A stretch of 64,000 bases of DNA from a virus. The stretch lies in the UHGV virus genome UHGV-1962423. One strand, 5' to 3'. The translations under genes were made by a program, and so were the position numbers. Below are positions 16,372 to 24,176 of the stretch, piece by piece; position 1 is the stretch's first letter; each line of letters opens with the position of its first letter. A model generated the notes under the pieces. The model did not search any database and was not told the origin of the DNA. It saw only the letters and a program-made list of their open reading frames with translations.

Positions 16372-17982
16372 ATGGCAAGCTACAGCGAAACTCGTGAATT
16401 TATCTTGAAAGTTGTAATGGCTAAACAGGATCAGCTGTTGAACTATCTCGTCGATGCGATGAATGCGAAAGGGATAAAAGAAGATCCGTTTGTTAATGCA
16501 GCGTGCATTGTAGGTAACTGGTATCTGCAAAACCGTCGTCCTAACGACCAGACTAACGTTGCGGTTATCGAAACCTTTAAGGCAACGCTGTATAGCCGTC
16601 TGTTAGGTTTAGGCCTGACGCCGTTGCAGCCGGACATTCATAGCGCGTTAGAGAAAGCGTTTGTGCTGGCGAATCAACTTGCAGAAGAAGCTCGTCGTGC
16701 CGGGCAGGGTGGATTCGGTGTACGTACTGAACCAGTTAACTTCGGTATTCAGAATTCACAGAATGCGCAACCAACCGCACCGATTCAGGGTTCTTCTGTA
16801 CCAATGGCCAGCTATACTCCGGCAGGTGTAACAGTGCAACCTGTACAACCCGCTCCGGTATTCGGCGGTACTCCGCAACCTCAACCTCAGCCGCAATCGC
16901 AGCCTGCTATTATTCAGCCGGCTGTTCCGCAGGAAGTGATGAACAAAAGCAAGCCTGTGGATATGAATAAGGAAACGATGGATGATATCATTCAACGTGC
17001 TAACCGTCCTCACCATGACATTTTGCGGGTAGAAATTGTGGAAGACTATTTAGATCACGAGCTGAAAGAAAAGATTCAGCAAAACGTTGTTTCGCCGAAA
17101 GAAGCTAACACACGCGTCAAGAATTCTGTGTATGCAGAACATCGTGACTGGGGTGATAAGGTTAGTGAACTGGTTGAAGATAACGACAAACAATATTGCT
17201 CGTATGACGATGCGGGTATCATGGTGAAAGTCGAAAGCGAATATCGTCTGTATCCGATGGCACAGACTGAAACTTCTGCGGTGTATCTCCAGGAGTTTTA
17301 TAGTTCGGTTCGCCAGATTATCGACGATCTCGATACCGTACGTGATATTGACGATATTGAAAAGCTGATGGAGCGTGTTTCTAATGACGTCTTCAGACTG
17401 CGTGACCTTGCACAACGTTTGTTAATGTACTTCCTCACCAAATCTGATGAGAATGAAACGTATCGTAGCGAATGTTCAATGTTTACTCGTCGTTTCGTTG
17501 CAACATTAACCGTGCTGGTTCACAACGCTATCTCCGTGGCATCTGCTTACGGTAAAGACGTTCCGGGTACGAAATTCGTACAATTGGAATGCTGCCTGGA
17601 TGACATGACCTACTTTAAAGAGACAGTGTATGGTCGTACCATCGGTGAAAACGGCGTGAGCAAGTCTGCGGATTATTTCCGTGAAATGTTCCTGCTAATC
17701 GCACGTTCTCTGCGTAAGCTGCACATTCGTCTGACCTGCGATAATAAAGCCATTGAACTGTCTCAGGTAACGTACACGATTTCTCTGCAAGCAGATTATC
17801 AATCCGCTAACGATCGTCATATCGTGGAAATCTCTTCGTTTGGTAATAGCTTCGAACCGATTGTTTCAATCTACGAAGTCATTAACCAGAAAGCACCAGA
17901 AGCGTTCATTAAACTTAAGACCCCGTCTCACGTTTATTCGCTACTGAGCACAGGTGACGTTACTGCACCGGTTCGTTATTAA
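16372..17982 (+). CDS. hypothetical protein with Pro/Gln-rich linker (536 aa)
   Basis: TTAGGAG RBS; low-complexity QPVQPAPVFGGTPQPQPQPQSQPAIIQPAVPQ segment at about 16800-16930. Confidence 0.8.
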   Translation: MASYSETREFILKVVMAKQDQLLNYLVDAMNAKGIKEDPFVNAACIVGNWYLQNRRPNDQTNVAVIETFKATLYSRLLGLGLTPLQPDIHSALEKAFVLANQLAEEARRAGQGGFGVRTEPVNFGIQNSQNAQPTAPIQGSSVPMASYTPAGVTVQPVQPAPVFGGTPQPQPQPQSQPAIIQPAVPQEVMNKSKPVDMNKETMDDIIQRANRPHHDILRVEIVEDYLDHELKEKIQQNVVSPKEANTRVKNSVYAEHRDWGDKVSELVEDNDKQYCSYDDAGIMVKVESEYRLYPMAQTETSAVYLQEFYSSVRQIIDDLDTVRDIDDIEKLMERVSNDVFRLRDLAQRLLMYFLTKSDENETYRSECSMFTRRFVATLTVLVHNAISVASAYGKDVPGTKFVQLECCLDDMTYFKETVYGRTIGENGVSKSADYFREMFLLIARSLRKLHIRLTCDNKAIELSQVTYTISLQADYQSANDRHIVEISSFGNSFEPIVSIYEVINQKAPEAFIKLKTPSHVYSLLSTGDVTAPVRY

Positions 17983-18363: not shown

Positions 18364-18669
18364 ATGATTAAATATGTTGTTATTAATGTAAACTACGAAC
18401 GTAGTCCACGTTTTCGCTTCGAATTACCTGAAACCAATGCAACCATGGAGTTTAATCGCTACTTTTTAGAGCATTCAAACACCAAAGTCAATCGCGGTAG
18501 ATACTAGCTTATCTACTATAATGCACGTAATGAGTTACTGAAAGCCGTCAAGAAATCAGGTCAGCAAGAATTGTTAGCGAAACTGATGGCGTTTGATAAC
18601 GATCCTTTAGCAATAGGAATTATGTTAGACCTTGTTATCAATAAAGACGAAATAGCGTGGTCCGAATAA
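18364..18669 (+). CDS. small ORF interrupted by in-frame TAG at 18505-18507
   Basis: ATG 18364 then 47 codons, TAG, then 53 further sense codons in the same frame to TAA 18667-18669; both halves look protein-like. Could be two genes, an amber allele, or readthrough. Confidence 0.35.
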
Positions 18670-18723
18670 AAAAGCTACTCCGACCCCAGAAGGGTCGGAG
18701 TAGGCTCGAATTATTTTTTTTTT
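18664..18723. terminator. bidirectional terminator between convergent genes
   Basis: ctactccgaccc-caga-agggtcggagtag flanked by A-run upstream and T-run downstream. Confidence 0.7.
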
Positions 18724-18728
18724 GCTAT

Positions 18729-21446
18729 TTAGAGAGTTTCATCGCTGTTGTCATCTGCACCGGTATCCGTCTCGTCCGTGCCTTCAGTTGAAACGTCTTC
18801 TTCCGTTGCCGTATCGGTTTCCGTCGTTTCATCGTCAGTCATGTCCAAGTCTTCATCACCGCCCAGATCGTCACCACCTAAGTCCTCATCGCCTCCTAAG
18901 CCGCCGTCATCTTCAGTGCCGCCGCCAAAGTCGCTGCTACCGCCGAAGTTATTGGCGTCTTCAGGATTCAGATCAGCCGCTTTTGCTAACGTTTCAACTT
19001 TCCCTGTTACACGTTTTGCCAACTGAATCAGTGTCTTAGATGCAGACGCAATTTCGTCAGAGATCATCTTAACGTTTTCACCGCGTTTCTCTTCATCGTA
19101 AATCAGGTCGAACATATCGTTCTCAATACCCTGACTACGTAACCAGTGGCGCGCGTAGAAGGTCTTAACCATCGTCTTGAGGTCATCAGGTGACATTTCA
19201 ATACCTTCGTTCTGAAGCATATTAGCAATGTCATCCGTGACCACCAGATCTGCAAGTTTCTCGATAAATTCATAGCGTTTATCGAAGAGATCAGCTTGAG
19301 ATGCTGTTGCAGAAGTATCAGGTGGTGGCAAGGTGACCTTCATACCGTTGATAAACTTCGCCATATACTCTGACGTTTGTTTTGTCATCTCTTCGCTAGA
19401 TACATTCGGATTCTGCTCACGGATATACTCAACGATAATACGGATGAGTTCTGCTTGCAGTTTCGGTGAAGCTTGCAGACTGTTTGTAACGTAGCGCGTA
19501 AGCGGGGTTGAGAGGATTTCCTGTTTCTTCACAATCTGTTGAGTAACCAACAGCGATTTAGAATAAATCTGAGAAGCAAACTCCAGGTTCTCCGGGGTAA
19601 GTACAAGGTCAGGATCAACACACGCGATGTGACATGTACGGCGTAACAGGTTCTCGTCAATTTGTTGATCAGGAACTTTATACTCCGGCGTGGTATCAGA
19701 CACAGACACTTTGTGGCTGGCGTAGTAATCGTTACCCGTTACGTTAAAGGCAATCCCCGCGTTAGCTCCCATTGCCCAAGCATCGTTAATATCCCCCCAC
19801 ATCGGTAAACGACGGTTGTAGGAGTTAAGGATATCTGATTTGGCTTGGTCGACAGTTTTTTGACCGTTTGCATCGTCCGGTGACAGCTCAATGTCGTACT
19901 GCATGTGACGTGCCGAGTTTAGTACAGATGAGTTCATTGTCGCAAACAGCAGTGCCATCCTGACGGTGGAGATGATAAAAGAGCGTTCAGTGATAGAAAC
20001 CCCGATACCATCTTCGTTAAAATCCGTTGCAAAATAGCATAGGTTATTAACCGGAATGTAAACCACTTGAGTATGACGTTTTGCGAGATGACGCGCTAAC
20101 AGAATACGGCCGAATGTTTCGGTAATATTCATGCTGATTTCTGCGCCACCTAGTGCCTGACTTAATGCGCGAGCAAATTCGTTTTCAGCGATTTCACCGC
20201 AACGTGTACTTAAACGGTTGGCGATTTCCGGGGTAATGCGAGAAGTGTTCCCTAAGCCCAGATTAGAACGGTTAATGATGCTGTCCGTCATCCCGTCGTT
20301 ATTCAGGTAGTTCATAAAGTTCGCATCGCCGTACAGCGAGGAGCGAGCATTGATGAAGTTACCCATGTCATCTACGATGGTCAGATAACCAATAGGGTTA
20401 CGAACGTCATCGCCAATTACCAGTGGCAGCGTTGACTCTGCGGGCAGTAAACGTTCGATGTATTCGATTTTGTTATTCTCATCCATTGAGATAATAGGAA
20501 TATCACCGTACGTTTGTGTTTTCGGTGTTGACTTATACGCCTCGTTTAAATCACCCAAGTTAATGAACCCTTTTTCAGCAGCGTCACGCTGACGGTCATC
20601 GAAAGATTGGTTAGGGTCGAACGGACTGCCACCGTTTGGTGTAGACGGCTTTTCATATGCGGCTTGCTCTAATTGCCCGTACAAACCCGTACGTGCGTTC
20701 TCATGCGCGATACGACGATACAAATCCGGCAGCATGGTAATGCGCGGGTTATCGGTAATCGTGATTTCCATCTGGAATTTATCCGAGAACATCGAATCGT
20801 GCTTACCGAAATCGATTTTCAACGTCTGAGGACCAGTAACGGCTCCGTGTAAACGGTTGAGAATTGATTCCACACCAACTCGCTGCCCTTCTTTCGGCGC
20901 ATTAATAGGCCCGAGAATACCAAGCTGTTGTTCGAAGAACGCCGTTTGGGAACGACGAATAGATTCAGTAGCGACCTTTGTATTCAGACCGAATAATTGG
21001 TCGAAGCCGGTATCCGAGATTATCATCACTGGACTTGCGCCTTTGGTTTTTAACGCATCGTAAATCCACTGATATAATTTCTTAGGTAGCTGACGAATGT
21101 TATCGTGATAATCACGGGTCGGTGTCAGTAGCGCGTTACGCAGATCAATGGGGATGTCCGCGAAGTTGTCGTAAATCAACGTCGTGTTGATTAAGTCTTT
21201 TGTTGATAACAGGCTCGAAGTTGCAATAGTAACGATTGTTTCGAGTTCAGGTAACGCATCAAAGATACGTTCCGCATTTTTGATAGTACGAATACGTGAA
21301 CTCGCAATTGCCGTGAGTTCTTGACGTGTTGGCGTAGAACCACCCTCGCTACGCGTACCGCGTTGTTGCTGAGGTGCTGGGCCCGTAGTTTTACGAAGAA
21401 TTGCAGCTACGGCGGGGTCGCCCGTTAATTTACTAATATCGTCCAT
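18729..21446 (-). CDS. large hypothetical protein with Gly/Asp-rich acidic C-terminal tail, possibly virion-associated (905 aa)
   Basis: Long minus-strand ORF; GGAG RBS on minus strand; C-terminal ~75 residues are GGDEDLGGDDLGGDEDL...TDETDT low complexity. Portal or structural role is speculation. Confidence 0.8.
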   Translation of the reverse strand: MDDISKLTGDPAVAAILRKTTGPAPQQQRGTRSEGGSTPTRQELTAIASSRIRTIKNAERIFDALPELETIVTIATSSLLSTKDLINTTLIYDNFADIPIDLRNALLTPTRDYHDNIRQLPKKLYQWIYDALKTKGASPVMIISDTGFDQLFGLNTKVATESIRRSQTAFFEQQLGILGPINAPKEGQRVGVESILNRLHGAVTGPQTLKIDFGKHDSMFSDKFQMEITITDNPRITMLPDLYRRIAHENARTGLYGQLEQAAYEKPSTPNGGSPFDPNQSFDDRQRDAAEKGFINLGDLNEAYKSTPKTQTYGDIPIISMDENNKIEYIERLLPAESTLPLVIGDDVRNPIGYLTIVDDMGNFINARSSLYGDANFMNYLNNDGMTDSIINRSNLGLGNTSRITPEIANRLSTRCGEIAENEFARALSQALGGAEISMNITETFGRILLARHLAKRHTQVVYIPVNNLCYFATDFNEDGIGVSITERSFIISTVRMALLFATMNSSVLNSARHMQYDIELSPDDANGQKTVDQAKSDILNSYNRRLPMWGDINDAWAMGANAGIAFNVTGNDYYASHKVSVSDTTPEYKVPDQQIDENLLRRTCHIACVDPDLVLTPENLEFASQIYSKSLLVTQQIVKKQEILSTPLTRYVTNSLQASPKLQAELIRIIVEYIREQNPNVSSEEMTKQTSEYMAKFINGMKVTLPPPDTSATASQADLFDKRYEFIEKLADLVVTDDIANMLQNEGIEMSPDDLKTMVKTFYARHWLRSQGIENDMFDLIYDEEKRGENVKMISDEIASASKTLIQLAKRVTGKVETLAKAADLNPEDANNFGGSSDFGGGTEDDGGLGGDEDLGGDDLGGDEDLDMTDDETTETDTATEEDVSTEGTDETDTGADDNSDETL

Positions 21447-21457
21447 TGGGGTCTCCG

Positions 21458-23641
21458 ATGCAGAGATTTAACATATTTCGTGAACAGAACATCGCGTTGG
21501 CGAAATCACTGATTATTAAATCAGAATCAATCGCACAACAGATGAATCTGGCAATAACCGAGAACGGCGGTTTCGTTTCCGATAACCGAAGTACGTGGCG
21601 ATACTACCTGCATTTAGCAGGACAACGTCACGAATGGGATAAGCCCATTTACATAACGTCGCTCGACACGCAAGAGCAGATAGAATTAACGACAGCCAAC
21701 CTGTCCCGTCATAAAAAGACCTCAAACGTATTTCGTTCGAACGGTGAGTACATTGAGGAGCTGATCAGAACGTATCCTGACTACGCGATTTATATCCGAG
21801 GTGTGTTTAATCCGGTGGATATAAACTACGCCATCCGTGTGGCTGATTGTTCTATTCTCTATTACGACAGTTCATTAGTGGAGTCGCAAGAGACGTCACT
21901 GATGTCGAGATTGGAAGACAGAATAAGGGCAGCTCACGTTCGCTATATGTCAGAAGGGTGGAAAGTTCACAACGATGCGTTCGTGTTAGCATTCTACTGT
22001 ATTCTGTATCCGCAGCTACCCGGCATTATCGGCTATATCCGTTCTTCTTTACAGCATACCACGGAAACACACTCGTTTTACGTGACAGAGTTCTTAGCAT
22101 CACACCAAGAACTTCACGAGTTTATGCCGTATCTGACCCAGAAACAGAAATTCATTCTTTATCGGAACATTCGTTACTGGGAACGTAACTCGGGGAAAGA
22201 GGAGATTTTCGACTGGCAGATTGATGCATTGCTGACAGGTTGGGGGATGCCTGCGGTTGGGTATAATGTTGCACAACAGATACACGAACCGAAGGATGAT
22301 GATGACTCCACGTTAACACCGTTACCGATCGGTTATCAGCAATCGCTTAACTATACGGAAAAGGATTCTGGTCGAGACCTTGACATTGTAACGACGACAG
22401 ACATTATCCAGAAGGAAGTCGCGTTAGCGTACAATAACCCGGCGTACGAACCGGAGTATCAGGAAGACTTAGATACCCGTTTAAGTTTAACGCAATACCC
22501 TAACCTGAAAACCAAACTCATTGAAGTTACAGCAGTCGACCCAGAAGCGATTGAGCGCTTCGAGTATCTGCATAACCTCTTTAACGAATGGGTACATCTC
22601 GTCGCGAAAGGGAAATACAACATTTACCACGAGATTCTTAACCCAACAAACGGGGATACCTTAAAGCTTAGCTCAAAAGAGTTATTGGCGCTGTTCTTAT
22701 ACGCGGCGTATAAAGGGTATTCTGACGTTGCGTTAGAAGAGATTCCTGCGTTCAACGTATTCGGGGTGTTAATCAAACGTTGGGTTTCGTTCGACGAAAT
22801 GGAACAACATTTAATCCCGAGCTGGGAAAACCGTTTCGAAGCGTTGATTAACTATTATACCGATACACACACAGAAGTCGTCGGAACGATTCTTAGTGCT
22901 GATGAACTCTACGACACGGTTAATGAAATCATTACCCAGAAACGTCGTCGTTGGCGTTATAGTCAAAACCGTCGGAAGATTCCTGACCGTGCTGCGGGCT
23001 TGATGCTGTTTAACTACCATTACCGTGATTATCGCTGCGATTTAAAACTGAACTACCGTAACTACGATGAGTTCTTTAAAACGTTCGGGTTAGATTATAC
23101 ATTGGTTTCGGCGGAGACGTGGCAAGACATTGCTATTGATGCGTTTAACACCGCGACTAACCTGGAAACCCGTGCAACGATTTCACAGTCTGAGATTCAG
23201 CGTGCAATGGTACGATTGATGACGAAGTTGTCATCCTACACCGTACATTTTGCTGCGCGAATGGGGTCAGATTCTTACGACGTTATGGACCCGCTCTGTC
23301 CCATCTTAGGGGATATCCCTATGAGTGGGGAGGGGACAATTACAATTATTGAACCCCTCTTAGGCGTACAGCAAGTTACGCGTCACCAGTATATATCCAC
23401 CGACACTGTGTTACCGGCAGCGCCTGTTATTAAAGAACTGTCGATGCCGCAGCACATCAAACTCAGGATGAACATTTACATGGGCATCCGAGTGAAAGTA
23501 ACACAGCAGGTTGTGGTGGATATTAACGAGCCGACTACCGGGGTTGTTAAAGTGAAATCTTCGCTTGACGATTGGACGTTAAACGAACAGGTGAAAATTA
23601 ACGATCTTGACGGCTTCACGCTTGACCAGCTACCTAAGTGA
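21458..23641 (+). CDS. hypothetical protein (727 aa)
   Basis: Track start TTG 21446; first ATG at 21458, 12 bp from the divergent minus-strand start. No Walker A motif seen. Confidence 0.75.
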   Translation: MQRFNIFREQNIALAKSLIIKSESIAQQMNLAITENGGFVSDNRSTWRYYLHLAGQRHEWDKPIYITSLDTQEQIELTTANLSRHKKTSNVFRSNGEYIEELIRTYPDYAIYIRGVFNPVDINYAIRVADCSILYYDSSLVESQETSLMSRLEDRIRAAHVRYMSEGWKVHNDAFVLAFYCILYPQLPGIIGYIRSSLQHTTETHSFYVTEFLASHQELHEFMPYLTQKQKFILYRNIRYWERNSGKEEIFDWQIDALLTGWGMPAVGYNVAQQIHEPKDDDDSTLTPLPIGYQQSLNYTEKDSGRDLDIVTTTDIIQKEVALAYNNPAYEPEYQEDLDTRLSLTQYPNLKTKLIEVTAVDPEAIERFEYLHNLFNEWVHLVAKGKYNIYHEILNPTNGDTLKLSSKELLALFLYAAYKGYSDVALEEIPAFNVFGVLIKRWVSFDEMEQHLIPSWENRFEALINYYTDTHTEVVGTILSADELYDTVNEIITQKRRRWRYSQNRRKIPDRAAGLMLFNYHYRDYRCDLKLNYRNYDEFFKTFGLDYTLVSAETWQDIAIDAFNTATNLETRATISQSEIQRAMVRLMTKLSSYTVHFAARMGSDSYDVMDPLCPILGDIPMSGEGTITIIEPLLGVQQVTRHQYISTDTVLPAAPVIKELSMPQHIKLRMNIYMGIRVKVTQQVVVDINEPTTGVVKVKSSLDDWTLNEQVKINDLDGFTLDQLPK

Positions 23642-23648
23642 GAAAACC

Positions 23649-24176
23649 ATGGCATATCGCGTCGACTTAACGAAAACTCCGAAACAAATTCTGGTAGATC
23701 GTATTAACTACGTTTTCGGGGTATCCTATACCACTGACAACATCGATTTTAACGATAAAGGTGTGCAACCACTGACGAAAGACGAAGCCCGTCGTTATGG
23801 ACTGGAATCGAAAGTGGCCGCTGACTTTAAAAACGGTGTTGCGGGGAACCAGGAATTCATCTTAACCCGTGTTGACCTGGCAGCGTTCTTAGCTGACGAA
23901 CCGGTTACGGTACCGAAAGGCGAAGTAACCAGCAGCCAAGAACTGGCAGACTATATCGTTGCTCAGACCGGTATTGATTTGACCAAAGACGACATTATGA
24001 TCGAGCCTATCAGTGAGGAACTCGATTCTTATGATGTTCGCTTAGTCCCGAATCACTTATCTTTTAAAGGAACGATTCCGGTCGTATTTACTGACCCCAC
24101 ACCACGTACGTTGGCGTCTCTCGTGACGAAACTTGCGCTGGACGGGTTCCGCCCTGGAGAATTAATCAATGTCTAA
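23649..24176 (+). CDS. hypothetical protein (175 aa)
   Basis: ATG 23649 follows upstream TGA; track ORF extends upstream into the previous gene. Confidence 0.65.
   Translation: MAYRVDLTKTPKQILVDRINYVFGVSYTTDNIDFNDKGVQPLTKDEARRYGLESKVAADFKNGVAGNQEFILTRVDLAAFLADEPVTVPKGEVTSSQELADYIVAQTGIDLTKDDIMIEPISEELDSYDVRLVPNHLSFKGTIPVVFTDPTPRTLASLVTKLALDGFRPGELINV

Follow-up and report, generated by a model that had tools for sequence, protein, structure and literature searches.

A poly-acidic, predicted disordered C-terminal tail on the portal protein of an uncultured Chimalliviridae jumbo phage

What is a large phage protein doing with more than eighty C-terminal residues that include no lysine or arginine (K/R)? 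This question is raised by a 905-residue protein (precursor mass 100.1 kDa) encoded on the minus strand of a 64,000-nucleotide viral stretch, UHGV-1962423 (hereafter the window; all coordinates are window positions unless a relative is named). The open reading frame (ORF) is identified here, by homology and gene order, as the portal gene of an uncultured Chimalliviridae (phiKZ/SPN3US-type) jumbo phage, a portal being the ring by which DNA enters and leaves. Its tail is probably functional, a conserved and selected disordered module. That the protein is a portal and that its tail is disordered and under selection is, taken jointly, regarded as nearly certain; a mechanism for the tail is put forward tentatively.

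Identity of the 905-residue protein

The protein matches phrog_3004 of the PHROGs collection, a family described as 'virion structural protein' in the head and packaging category, over its full length (residues 2-902, E=0). Sequence matches in the PDB are to phiKZ gp129 (9xpe_M, E 1.5e-41), to a chain named 'Portal protein gp36' (11ed_J, 1.2e-28) and to 36za_o8 (1.5e-23); the 9xpe and 36za entries contain 12 chains each. 9XPE is the portal-adaptor complex in the structural atlas of phiKZ, where gp129 is the dodecameric portal (PMC13250141), and gp36 comes from phage Goslar, whose portal it forms (preprint 10.64898/2026.04.21.720040). An AlphaFold2 (AF2) model, built from 39 homologues, has the clip, stem, wing and crown of a portal, with a mean predicted local distance difference test score (pLDDT) of only 60.5 and low confidence outside the core. 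When this model was compared with known structures by Foldseek, the top match was again 9xpe_M (E 2.1e-21, Foldseek probability 1.00, template modelling (TM) scores 0.41/0.56); at ranks 2-22 every match was to another phage's portal, though a weak one (E >= 0.03).

Among cultured phages, phiEaH2 (74.8% identity) and the SPN3US group (about 72-74%) come nearest. Proteins with 98% identity are confined to metagenomic or Logan assemblies, apart from one partial E. coli record. SPN3US_0081 is 72% identical over residues 1-834 and lies in the same gene order and orientation; the order of genes around the portal agrees with SPN3US_0078-0085 and with the metagenomic relatives L001, L003 and L005. In SPN3US, a Salmonella phage, gp81 has been experimentally assigned as the portal, present in 12 copies and at low abundance (PMC5694885); Seoulvirus, to which SPN3US belongs, is a member of Chimalliviridae. 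By analogy with these homologues, the window protein would form a dodecameric ring at one capsid vertex.

A preliminary description of this DNA had offered a portal or an internal virion protein as the identity of the ORF, and had proposed a structure or profile search as the check. Searches of these kinds, together with the gp81 synteny, bear out the portal guess. An internal virion or ejection (inner-body) protein is not supported, as the significant matches are all portals and SPN3US gp81 is a low-abundance protein of 12 copies. Neither Pfam-A nor NCBIfam holds a family that matches the 905-residue protein, even at permissive thresholds, and no homology to a non-virion enzyme emerged from them; no oligonucleotide/oligosaccharide-binding (OB) fold or single-stranded DNA-binding protein (SSB) family was matched in the same two databases, and the core has a portal fold. 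This portal family, which comprises 1,115 clusters at 50% identity, is therefore entered in most database records as 'hypothetical' or 'virion structural protein'. Its assignment anchors the head-assembly module of an uncultured jumbo phage of the E. coli/Salmonella/Erwinia type.

Composition, conservation and maturation of the tail

The last 76 residues, DANNFGGSSDFGGGTEDDGGLGGDEDLGGDDLGGDEDLDMTDDETTETDTATEEDVSTEGTDETDTGADDNSDETL, are 26% D, 20% G, 16% T and 13% E; they include 30 D/E, 15 G, 12 T and no K/R, and carry a net charge of -30. The acidic tail that the preliminary description had pointed out is thus real, but its wording that the tail is almost entirely G, D, E and T slightly overstates the case: these four make up 75%, and nine hydrophobic residues are interspersed. 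Its span, 18729-18960 (232 nt), does cover this end of the tail, as the stop codon and 76 codons, plus one extra base which puts the upper coordinate trivially out of frame. The last basic residue is K822, which leaves a K/R-free tail of 83 residues (823-905) with a net charge of -32, 32 D/E (39%) and 15 G (18%). If residues were drawn at the frequencies seen in the body of the protein, 83 in a row would lack K/R with a probability of 1e-4 and would include at least 32 D/E with one of 6e-9. The most negative 76-residue segment has a charge of -31, whereas 2000 shuffles of the protein gave -14.3 +/- 2.0 (minimum -22). No comparable acidic segment was found in any other window ORF of at least 100 residues.

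The ORF ends in a TAA stop, and 25 nt beyond it begins a hairpin with a 13-bp stem (eight G-C pairs) flanked by an A-run upstream and a T-run downstream, giving T-runs on both strands; this arrangement of stop and terminator marks the ORF end as the true C-terminus. The coding strand of the tail is purine-rich (63%). Tandem Repeats Finder detected no DNA tandem repeat in 18600-19200, even at score 30, and a recent DNA repeat origin for the quasi-repeat LGGDEDLGGDDLGGDEDL was rejected on this ground. Two antisense ORFs on the plus strand, 18722..19039 (105 residues) and 18748..19026 (92 residues), are dismissed as by-products of the purine-rich strand; their products are S/P/R/L-rich and of low complexity, and selection acts in the portal frame.

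In the AF2 model a final helix of 36 residues (788-823) is followed by 82 residues (824-905) without secondary structure and with a pLDDT of about 27, and the tail is accordingly predicted to be intrinsically disordered. In the solved phiKZ portal, the model of chain 9xpe_M covers only 633 of the 896 gp129 residues. The crown is the innermost part of a portal (PMC4493910). With the crown facing the capsid interior, the twelve tails should reach into the head and surround the channel's inner mouth, and homology to the solved portals would place them inside the capsid. Together they would contribute about -380 charges per portal.

Tails of this kind are found across the family. A word-indexed search returned 55 full-length close homologues, all 55 of which have tails of 64-113 residues with a net charge of -24 to -53 and 0-3 K/R. 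D/E account for 26-54% of residues in these tails against 13-15% in the bodies, and K/R for 0-3% against 10-12%; Gly varies from 4 to 37% in the tails. A phmmer scan of 1.84 billion representatives gave the 1,115 clusters mentioned above at E<=1e-3. From these, 136 near-full-length non-redundant representatives were taken, 23-60% (mostly 23-35%) identical to the query; over the last 60 residues, 95% have a net charge of -10 or lower and 82% of -15 or lower, and a single one lies above -5. The portals of phiKZ and Goslar carry the same kind of tail in HMMER alignments. Column identity within the tail is about 0.28, and its 83 reference residues are stretched over 201 alignment columns; together with the retained charge, this indicates that the sequence drifts while the composition is held. 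A poly-acidic, K/R-poor tail is a hallmark proposed here for this portal family, and not a criterion taken from the literature.

The ratio of non-synonymous to synonymous substitution rates (dN/dS) in the tail is 0.18 in the comparison with L003 (98% identical protein) and 0.12 with L001 (90%), values based on 8-9 non-synonymous and 11-17 synonymous differences; the corresponding values for the body are 0.05 and 0.04. The replacements in the tail are all conservative (S/G/T/A/N, D/E, L/M) and none is to K/R; one D to G change is accompanied by a G to D change three residues away. The tail is judged from these comparisons to be under purifying selection. As a separate observation, dS between the window gene and L001 3001..5718 is uneven (propeptide 0.65, mature body 2.27, tail 0.41), and the propeptide is nearly identical to that of L003 (dS 0.05). 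This unevenness suggests recombinational mosaicism within the portal gene, or saturation.

Realignment of the last 135 residues of 39 homologues yielded G-G-D-[DE]-D-Phi-x-Phi as the element best aligned across the clade; it reads GGDEDLDM in the window protein, and GGDDDLNL, GGDEDDFDM, GGDDDFSF and similar elsewhere. Counted over the last 70 residues only, acid-flanked Phi-x-Phi is present in 48 of 141 non-redundant tails, where shuffles that preserve composition give 7.0 +/- 2.3 (maximum 14), and the looser [DE][DE]-Phi-x-Phi in 56 of the 141, where they give 15.5 +/- 3.6. A strict i, i+2 rule for the spacing of hydrophobic residues was set aside as weakly supported alone (z = 1.9); clustering occurs at several spacings. 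Asp is preferred before the hydrophobic residues of the tail and Gly after them. Aromatic residues are present in 85-92% of tails and Phe-Gly dipeptides (FG/GF) in 66-69%; 69% of close-clade tails end hydrophobic (ETL, DDDIPL, NPDNVL, PPV, DLKF), with no fixed motif. Acidic-hydrophobic docking motifs of disordered regions typically show such hydrophobic and aromatic features, which a pure charge brush would not need. A PDB search with the tail alone gave no match at E<=10.

Whether the tail survives head maturation can be judged from SPN3US, where the prohead protease gp245 cuts gp81 after ATE-161 and AQE-254 to give a mature portal of 72.3 kDa (PMC5694885; PMC10052503 and its supplement). Both sites have aligned counterparts in the window protein, VATE161/S and AHE249/N (the slash marks the cut), of which A247 and E249 are invariant in 39 of 39 homologues. 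The predicted mature portal would thus comprise residues 250-905, with a mass of 72.4 kDa and a net charge of -55, tail included. The published 72.3 kDa for mature gp81 equals the mass computed from residue 255 to the C-terminus and agrees with gel migration. The window tail itself holds one A-x-E motif (ATE882) and six [SAG]-x-E motifs. A-x-E is sporadic in tails: it is missing from most homologues, and ATE882 is kept in one of 39; a conserved removal of the tail by the protease is rejected for this reason. From the sporadic motif and from the fit of the tail-inclusive mass to the gel, we infer that the tail is kept on the mature virion portal. The SPN3US supplement (PMC10052503) lists cleavage sites and holds no peptide-level coverage of the gp81 C-terminus. 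Processing differs by lineage: SPN3US gp81 loses about 254 N-terminal residues, at sites kept in the window protein, whereas residues 5-519 are included in the wing of the Goslar portal.

Proposed role of the tail and rival explanations

The favoured mechanism, to which a little less than an even chance is given, is a tether that captures internal head proteins and at the same time repels DNA. After the prohead protease has removed about 249 N-terminal residues, each of the 12 subunits would keep its C-terminal extension of about 83 residues. These extensions would act as disordered polyanionic tethers, bearing GGDEDLDM as a docking motif, and would capture internal head proteins (scaffold or core proteins, and ejection or inner-body proteins) by their basic or hydrophobic surfaces, both during prohead assembly and in the virion. 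The captured proteins would be held on the portal axis by the tails, and the charge of the tails would keep packaged DNA off the crown and the channel entrance.

Several observations on other phages make such a tether reasonable. In P22, ejection proteins are proposed to bind to the disordered part of the barrel at the C-terminus of the portal (PMC4992974). The P22 barrel lacks structure in the procapsid, portals use contacts with the scaffold to nucleate procapsids, and a negatively charged loop of the scaffold is implicated in scaffold release as DNA enters (PMC12005531). Heads of the SPN3US type contain more than 40 MDa of ejection proteins (PMC7411985); since so large a cargo must leave by the portal, a tether at the channel mouth is functionally sensible. 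The preliminary description had suggested that the tail could interact with DNA-binding or basic partners. Contacts with basic partners are plausible, the conserved charge, the purifying selection and the motif all being consistent with them.

A number of points weigh against this mechanism or against the reading on which it is built. Trypsin releases no peptides from the 83-residue K/R-free segment, and acidic proteins run anomalously on sodium dodecyl sulphate-polyacrylamide gel electrophoresis, which bears on the retention of the tail. The AF2 model is modest (mean pLDDT 60.5; TM 0.41/0.56 to 9xpe_M). No candidate for a basic partner was found among the window ORFs, most of the basic ones being either unrelated genes or antisense or overlapping artefacts, and the role of the tail in binding and repulsion is one that we infer. 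Only about one non-redundant tail in three has the strict motif, which may thus be clade-specific, and the shuffle tests behind its enrichment reduce phylogenetic non-independence but do not fully remove it. Finally, the rapid divergence of the tail sequence and the wide range of Gly (4-37%) would suit a purely compositional role equally well.

A broader form of the proposal, which is regarded as distinctly speculative and improbable, is that the tails constitute a portal module of nucleus-forming jumbo phages: either arms that anchor inner body, ejection or virion RNA polymerase cargo, or a DNA-mimicking entropic gate made of FG-containing chains. The gate would seal the unusually wide portal channel of the prohead until the terminase delivers DNA at the phage nucleus. 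If true, either the anchor or the gate would be a portal-based mechanism undescribed for classical phages.

The question has wider interest. The heads of giant phages must take up and organise tens of megadaltons of internal protein and later eject it by way of the portal, and the placement of inner-body or ejection proteins with respect to the portal is still an open problem for phiKZ-like phage assembly. Should the tail prove to be a cargo tether or gate, its 83 residues and single eight-residue motif would provide a concrete, mutable handle on loading and ejection.

The purely compositional alternative is a partner-less electrostatic or entropic brush, in which the tails would form a DNA-repelling, space-filling cushion over the crown; it is considered rather unlikely. 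Such a brush would prevent the packaged genome, above all the end packaged last, from sticking to the channel mouth or blocking it, and might help to sense head filling. It accounts well for a tail that loses alignability and varies between 64 and 113 residues in length while K/R exclusion and net charge are kept down to 23% identity. Negative upper portal surfaces have been read as a means of DNA avoidance in work on the T4 portal (PMC4493910), and the negative scaffold loop of P22 is implicated in the response to incoming DNA (PMC12005531). However, the hydrophobic and aromatic residues found in 85-92% of tails are unneeded in a brush, yet they are placed non-randomly and flanked by acids, and a dN/dS of 0.12-0.18 points to constraint at the level of residues, beyond charge. 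Moreover, about 380 charges are negligible beside the roughly 480,000 phosphates of a genome of about 240 kb, and any effect would be strictly local.

The tail could also be a C-terminal propeptide with a role in assembly only, such as keeping monomers soluble or aiding ring formation, which is then cut off by the prohead protease and is absent from virions. The family protease does cleave after Glu, the tail offers ATE882 and the six [SAG]-x-E motifs, the prohead protease loses a C-terminal propeptide of its own, and the tail is unresolved in the solved structures. Against this stand the lack of A-x-E from most homologous tails, the retention of the window site in one homologue of 39, and the extensive mass spectrometry of SPN3US, which gives only N-terminal sites in gp81, for which the mature mass with the tail fits the gel. 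A propeptide is thus thought quite unlikely.

Polyanionic tails are well known as DNA mimics in other systems. Tails of the window portal might likewise fold back into the unusually wide portal channel before packaging and be displaced by incoming DNA; as a plug they could seal the prohead against loss of internal protein, or they could reach outside to the terminase or to a docking site on the phage nucleus. Their length would permit this, as a fully extended 83-residue chain could span up to about 30 nm and exceed the portal channel, and FG/GF dipeptides are found in 66-69% of tails. The Goslar channel, moreover, is reported to be about 60-74 Angstrom wide (preprint 10.64898/2026.04.21.720040). 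However, the tail leaves the crown at its top, facing away from the channel exit, mutual repulsion would be expected among twelve chains of like charge sharing a single channel, and the phiKZ and Goslar structure papers report no such density; a plug is therefore given only a slim chance.

Neutral expansion of low-complexity sequence by replication slippage in GA-rich codons, without function, would fit the low complexity, the indels between clades (201 columns for about 90 residues) and the 63% purine coding strand, but deserves almost no credence given the absence of a DNA tandem repeat, the presence of a tail in essentially every family member across the 1,115 clusters, a dN/dS well below 1 and the K/R content of 0-3% in tails against 10.8% in the body.

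Neighbouring genes and comparison with known systems

The features of the portal gene and its immediate surroundings are collected in Table 1.

Table 1. Positions of the portal gene, its predicted parts and the adjacent terminator in the window
Feature	Position	Strand	Evidence
Portal protein gene, orthologue of SPN3US gp81 / phiKZ gp129 / Goslar gp36	18729..21446	-	PHROGs, PDB, Foldseek, synteny
Poly-acidic K/R-free C-terminal tail, predicted disordered (residues 823-905 and stop)	18729..18980	-	Composition, pLDDT, conservation, dN/dS
Acidic-hydrophobic motif GGDEDLDM in the tail (residues 862-869)	18840..18863	-	Tail alignment, motif enrichment
Last predicted crown/barrel helix (residues 788-822), from the end of which the tail emerges	18981..19085	-	AlphaFold2 model
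Predicted N-terminal propeptide (residues 1-249), sites VATE161/S and AHE249/N	20700..21446	-	Conservation, SPN3US alignment
Bidirectional intrinsic-terminator hairpin between the convergent portal and small plus-strand genes	18675..18703	.	Sequence

The small gene convergent with the portal (18364..18669, plus strand) corresponds to a 99-residue ORF in L001 and L003 and is equivalent to SPN3US_0080. In the window an amber TAG replaces the TGG (Trp48) of the relatives, dividing it into ORFs of 47 and 32 residues; the interruption may reflect a nonsense mutation that arose naturally, a pseudogene or an error in sequencing. On the other side, a divergent 731-residue ORF is listed from a TTG at 21446 and overlaps the portal ATG by 1 nt. 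Its relatives are called at 727 residues, with a start 11 nt from the portal start, and its real start is probably the ATG at 21458; with the two divergent genes only about 11 nt apart, their promoters must sit within coding DNA. Two genes upstream of the portal, 23607..24176 (plus strand) belongs to phrog_2935, a virion structural protein, and contains DUF7941 in relatives (L001 271..798), a module tied to abundant fibre-forming virion proteins (Goslar preprint 10.64898/2026.04.21.720040). A further neighbour, 16372..17982 (plus strand), encodes a 536-residue protein of phrog_8185, of unknown function, with a Q/P-rich low-complexity linker (PQPQPQPQSQPAIIQPAVPQ) whose length differs among relatives (536, 545 and 550 residues in total).

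Among known systems, the nearest is SPN3US gp81, which shares 72% identity with the window protein over residues 1-834, its neighbours, both gp245 sites, a nearly identical mature mass (72.3 and 72.4 kDa) and an acidic, K/R-free tail of similar length. The tails differ in that the region beyond residue 834 cannot be aligned by BLAST, and tails of the SPN3US type (P0008-P0013) are richer in Gly and poorer in D/E, with 20-27 Gly and 24-31 D/E in 87-94 residues. No published statement on the gp81 C-terminus was found. The portals phiKZ gp129 and Goslar gp36 are homologous over nearly their full length and share the clip-stem-wing-crown architecture, although identity is only about 16-25% and the wing of Goslar gp36 includes N-terminal residues 5-519, in contrast to the SPN3US clade in which about 250 N-terminal residues are removed. 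Both end in acidic tails rich in G/S/D/E/T and containing F/L/M, for example DEDEVDMEGL and DDFGGGDDFGDTDFDTETMEE, with a T/E-rich stretch.

The P22 portal, gp1, offers a parallel of a different kind in its barrel (residues 601-725), a C-terminal extension which runs past the crown into the capsid, has no structure in the procapsid and is disordered in part in the virion (PMC12005531, PMC4992974). Unlike the window tail, which is a predicted coil, Gly-rich and extremely negative, it can form a long alpha-helical barrel, and there is no sequence relationship between the two. A helical barrel of the P22 type, more than 100 residues long, was considered for the window protein but is not supported, the AF2 model having a 36-residue helix followed by an 82-residue coil with 18% Gly (a monomer prediction; folding that depends on oligomerisation is possible). 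The portal of T4, gp20, is the nearest classical portal by fold according to the authors of the phiKZ, Goslar and SPN3US studies, and its upper surface is negative; however, it has only about eight disordered residues after the crown, is unprocessed and lacks a poly-acidic tail.

A further likeness is to the tails of SSB-type proteins (E. coli SSB, ending DDDIPF, T7 gp2.5 and T4 gp32), in which a disordered Gly-rich linker leads to an acidic stretch and a hydrophobic tip that docks proteins. Some relatives of the window portal end similarly, in DDDIPL, EEDIPQ or DEIPMV. Unlike these proteins, the portal has neither an OB fold nor a DNA-binding role, and the window protein ends in SDETL; the likeness is one of composition and not of homology.

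No description of an acidic or negatively charged C-terminal portal tail was found in literature searches aimed at it; the structure papers on phiKZ and Goslar are silent on the tails, and mentions of 'acidic' in papers on Avs5 and P7-1 proved irrelevant to them. The tail is unresolved by cryogenic electron microscopy because it is disordered and undetectable in tryptic proteomics because it lacks K/R, and having been missed by both, this conserved module has so far gone undiscussed. The gene is an addition from an uncultured lineage to the known family of SPN3US gp81, phiKZ gp129 and Goslar gp36, and its tail appears to be a feature that is under-described rather than new in kind.

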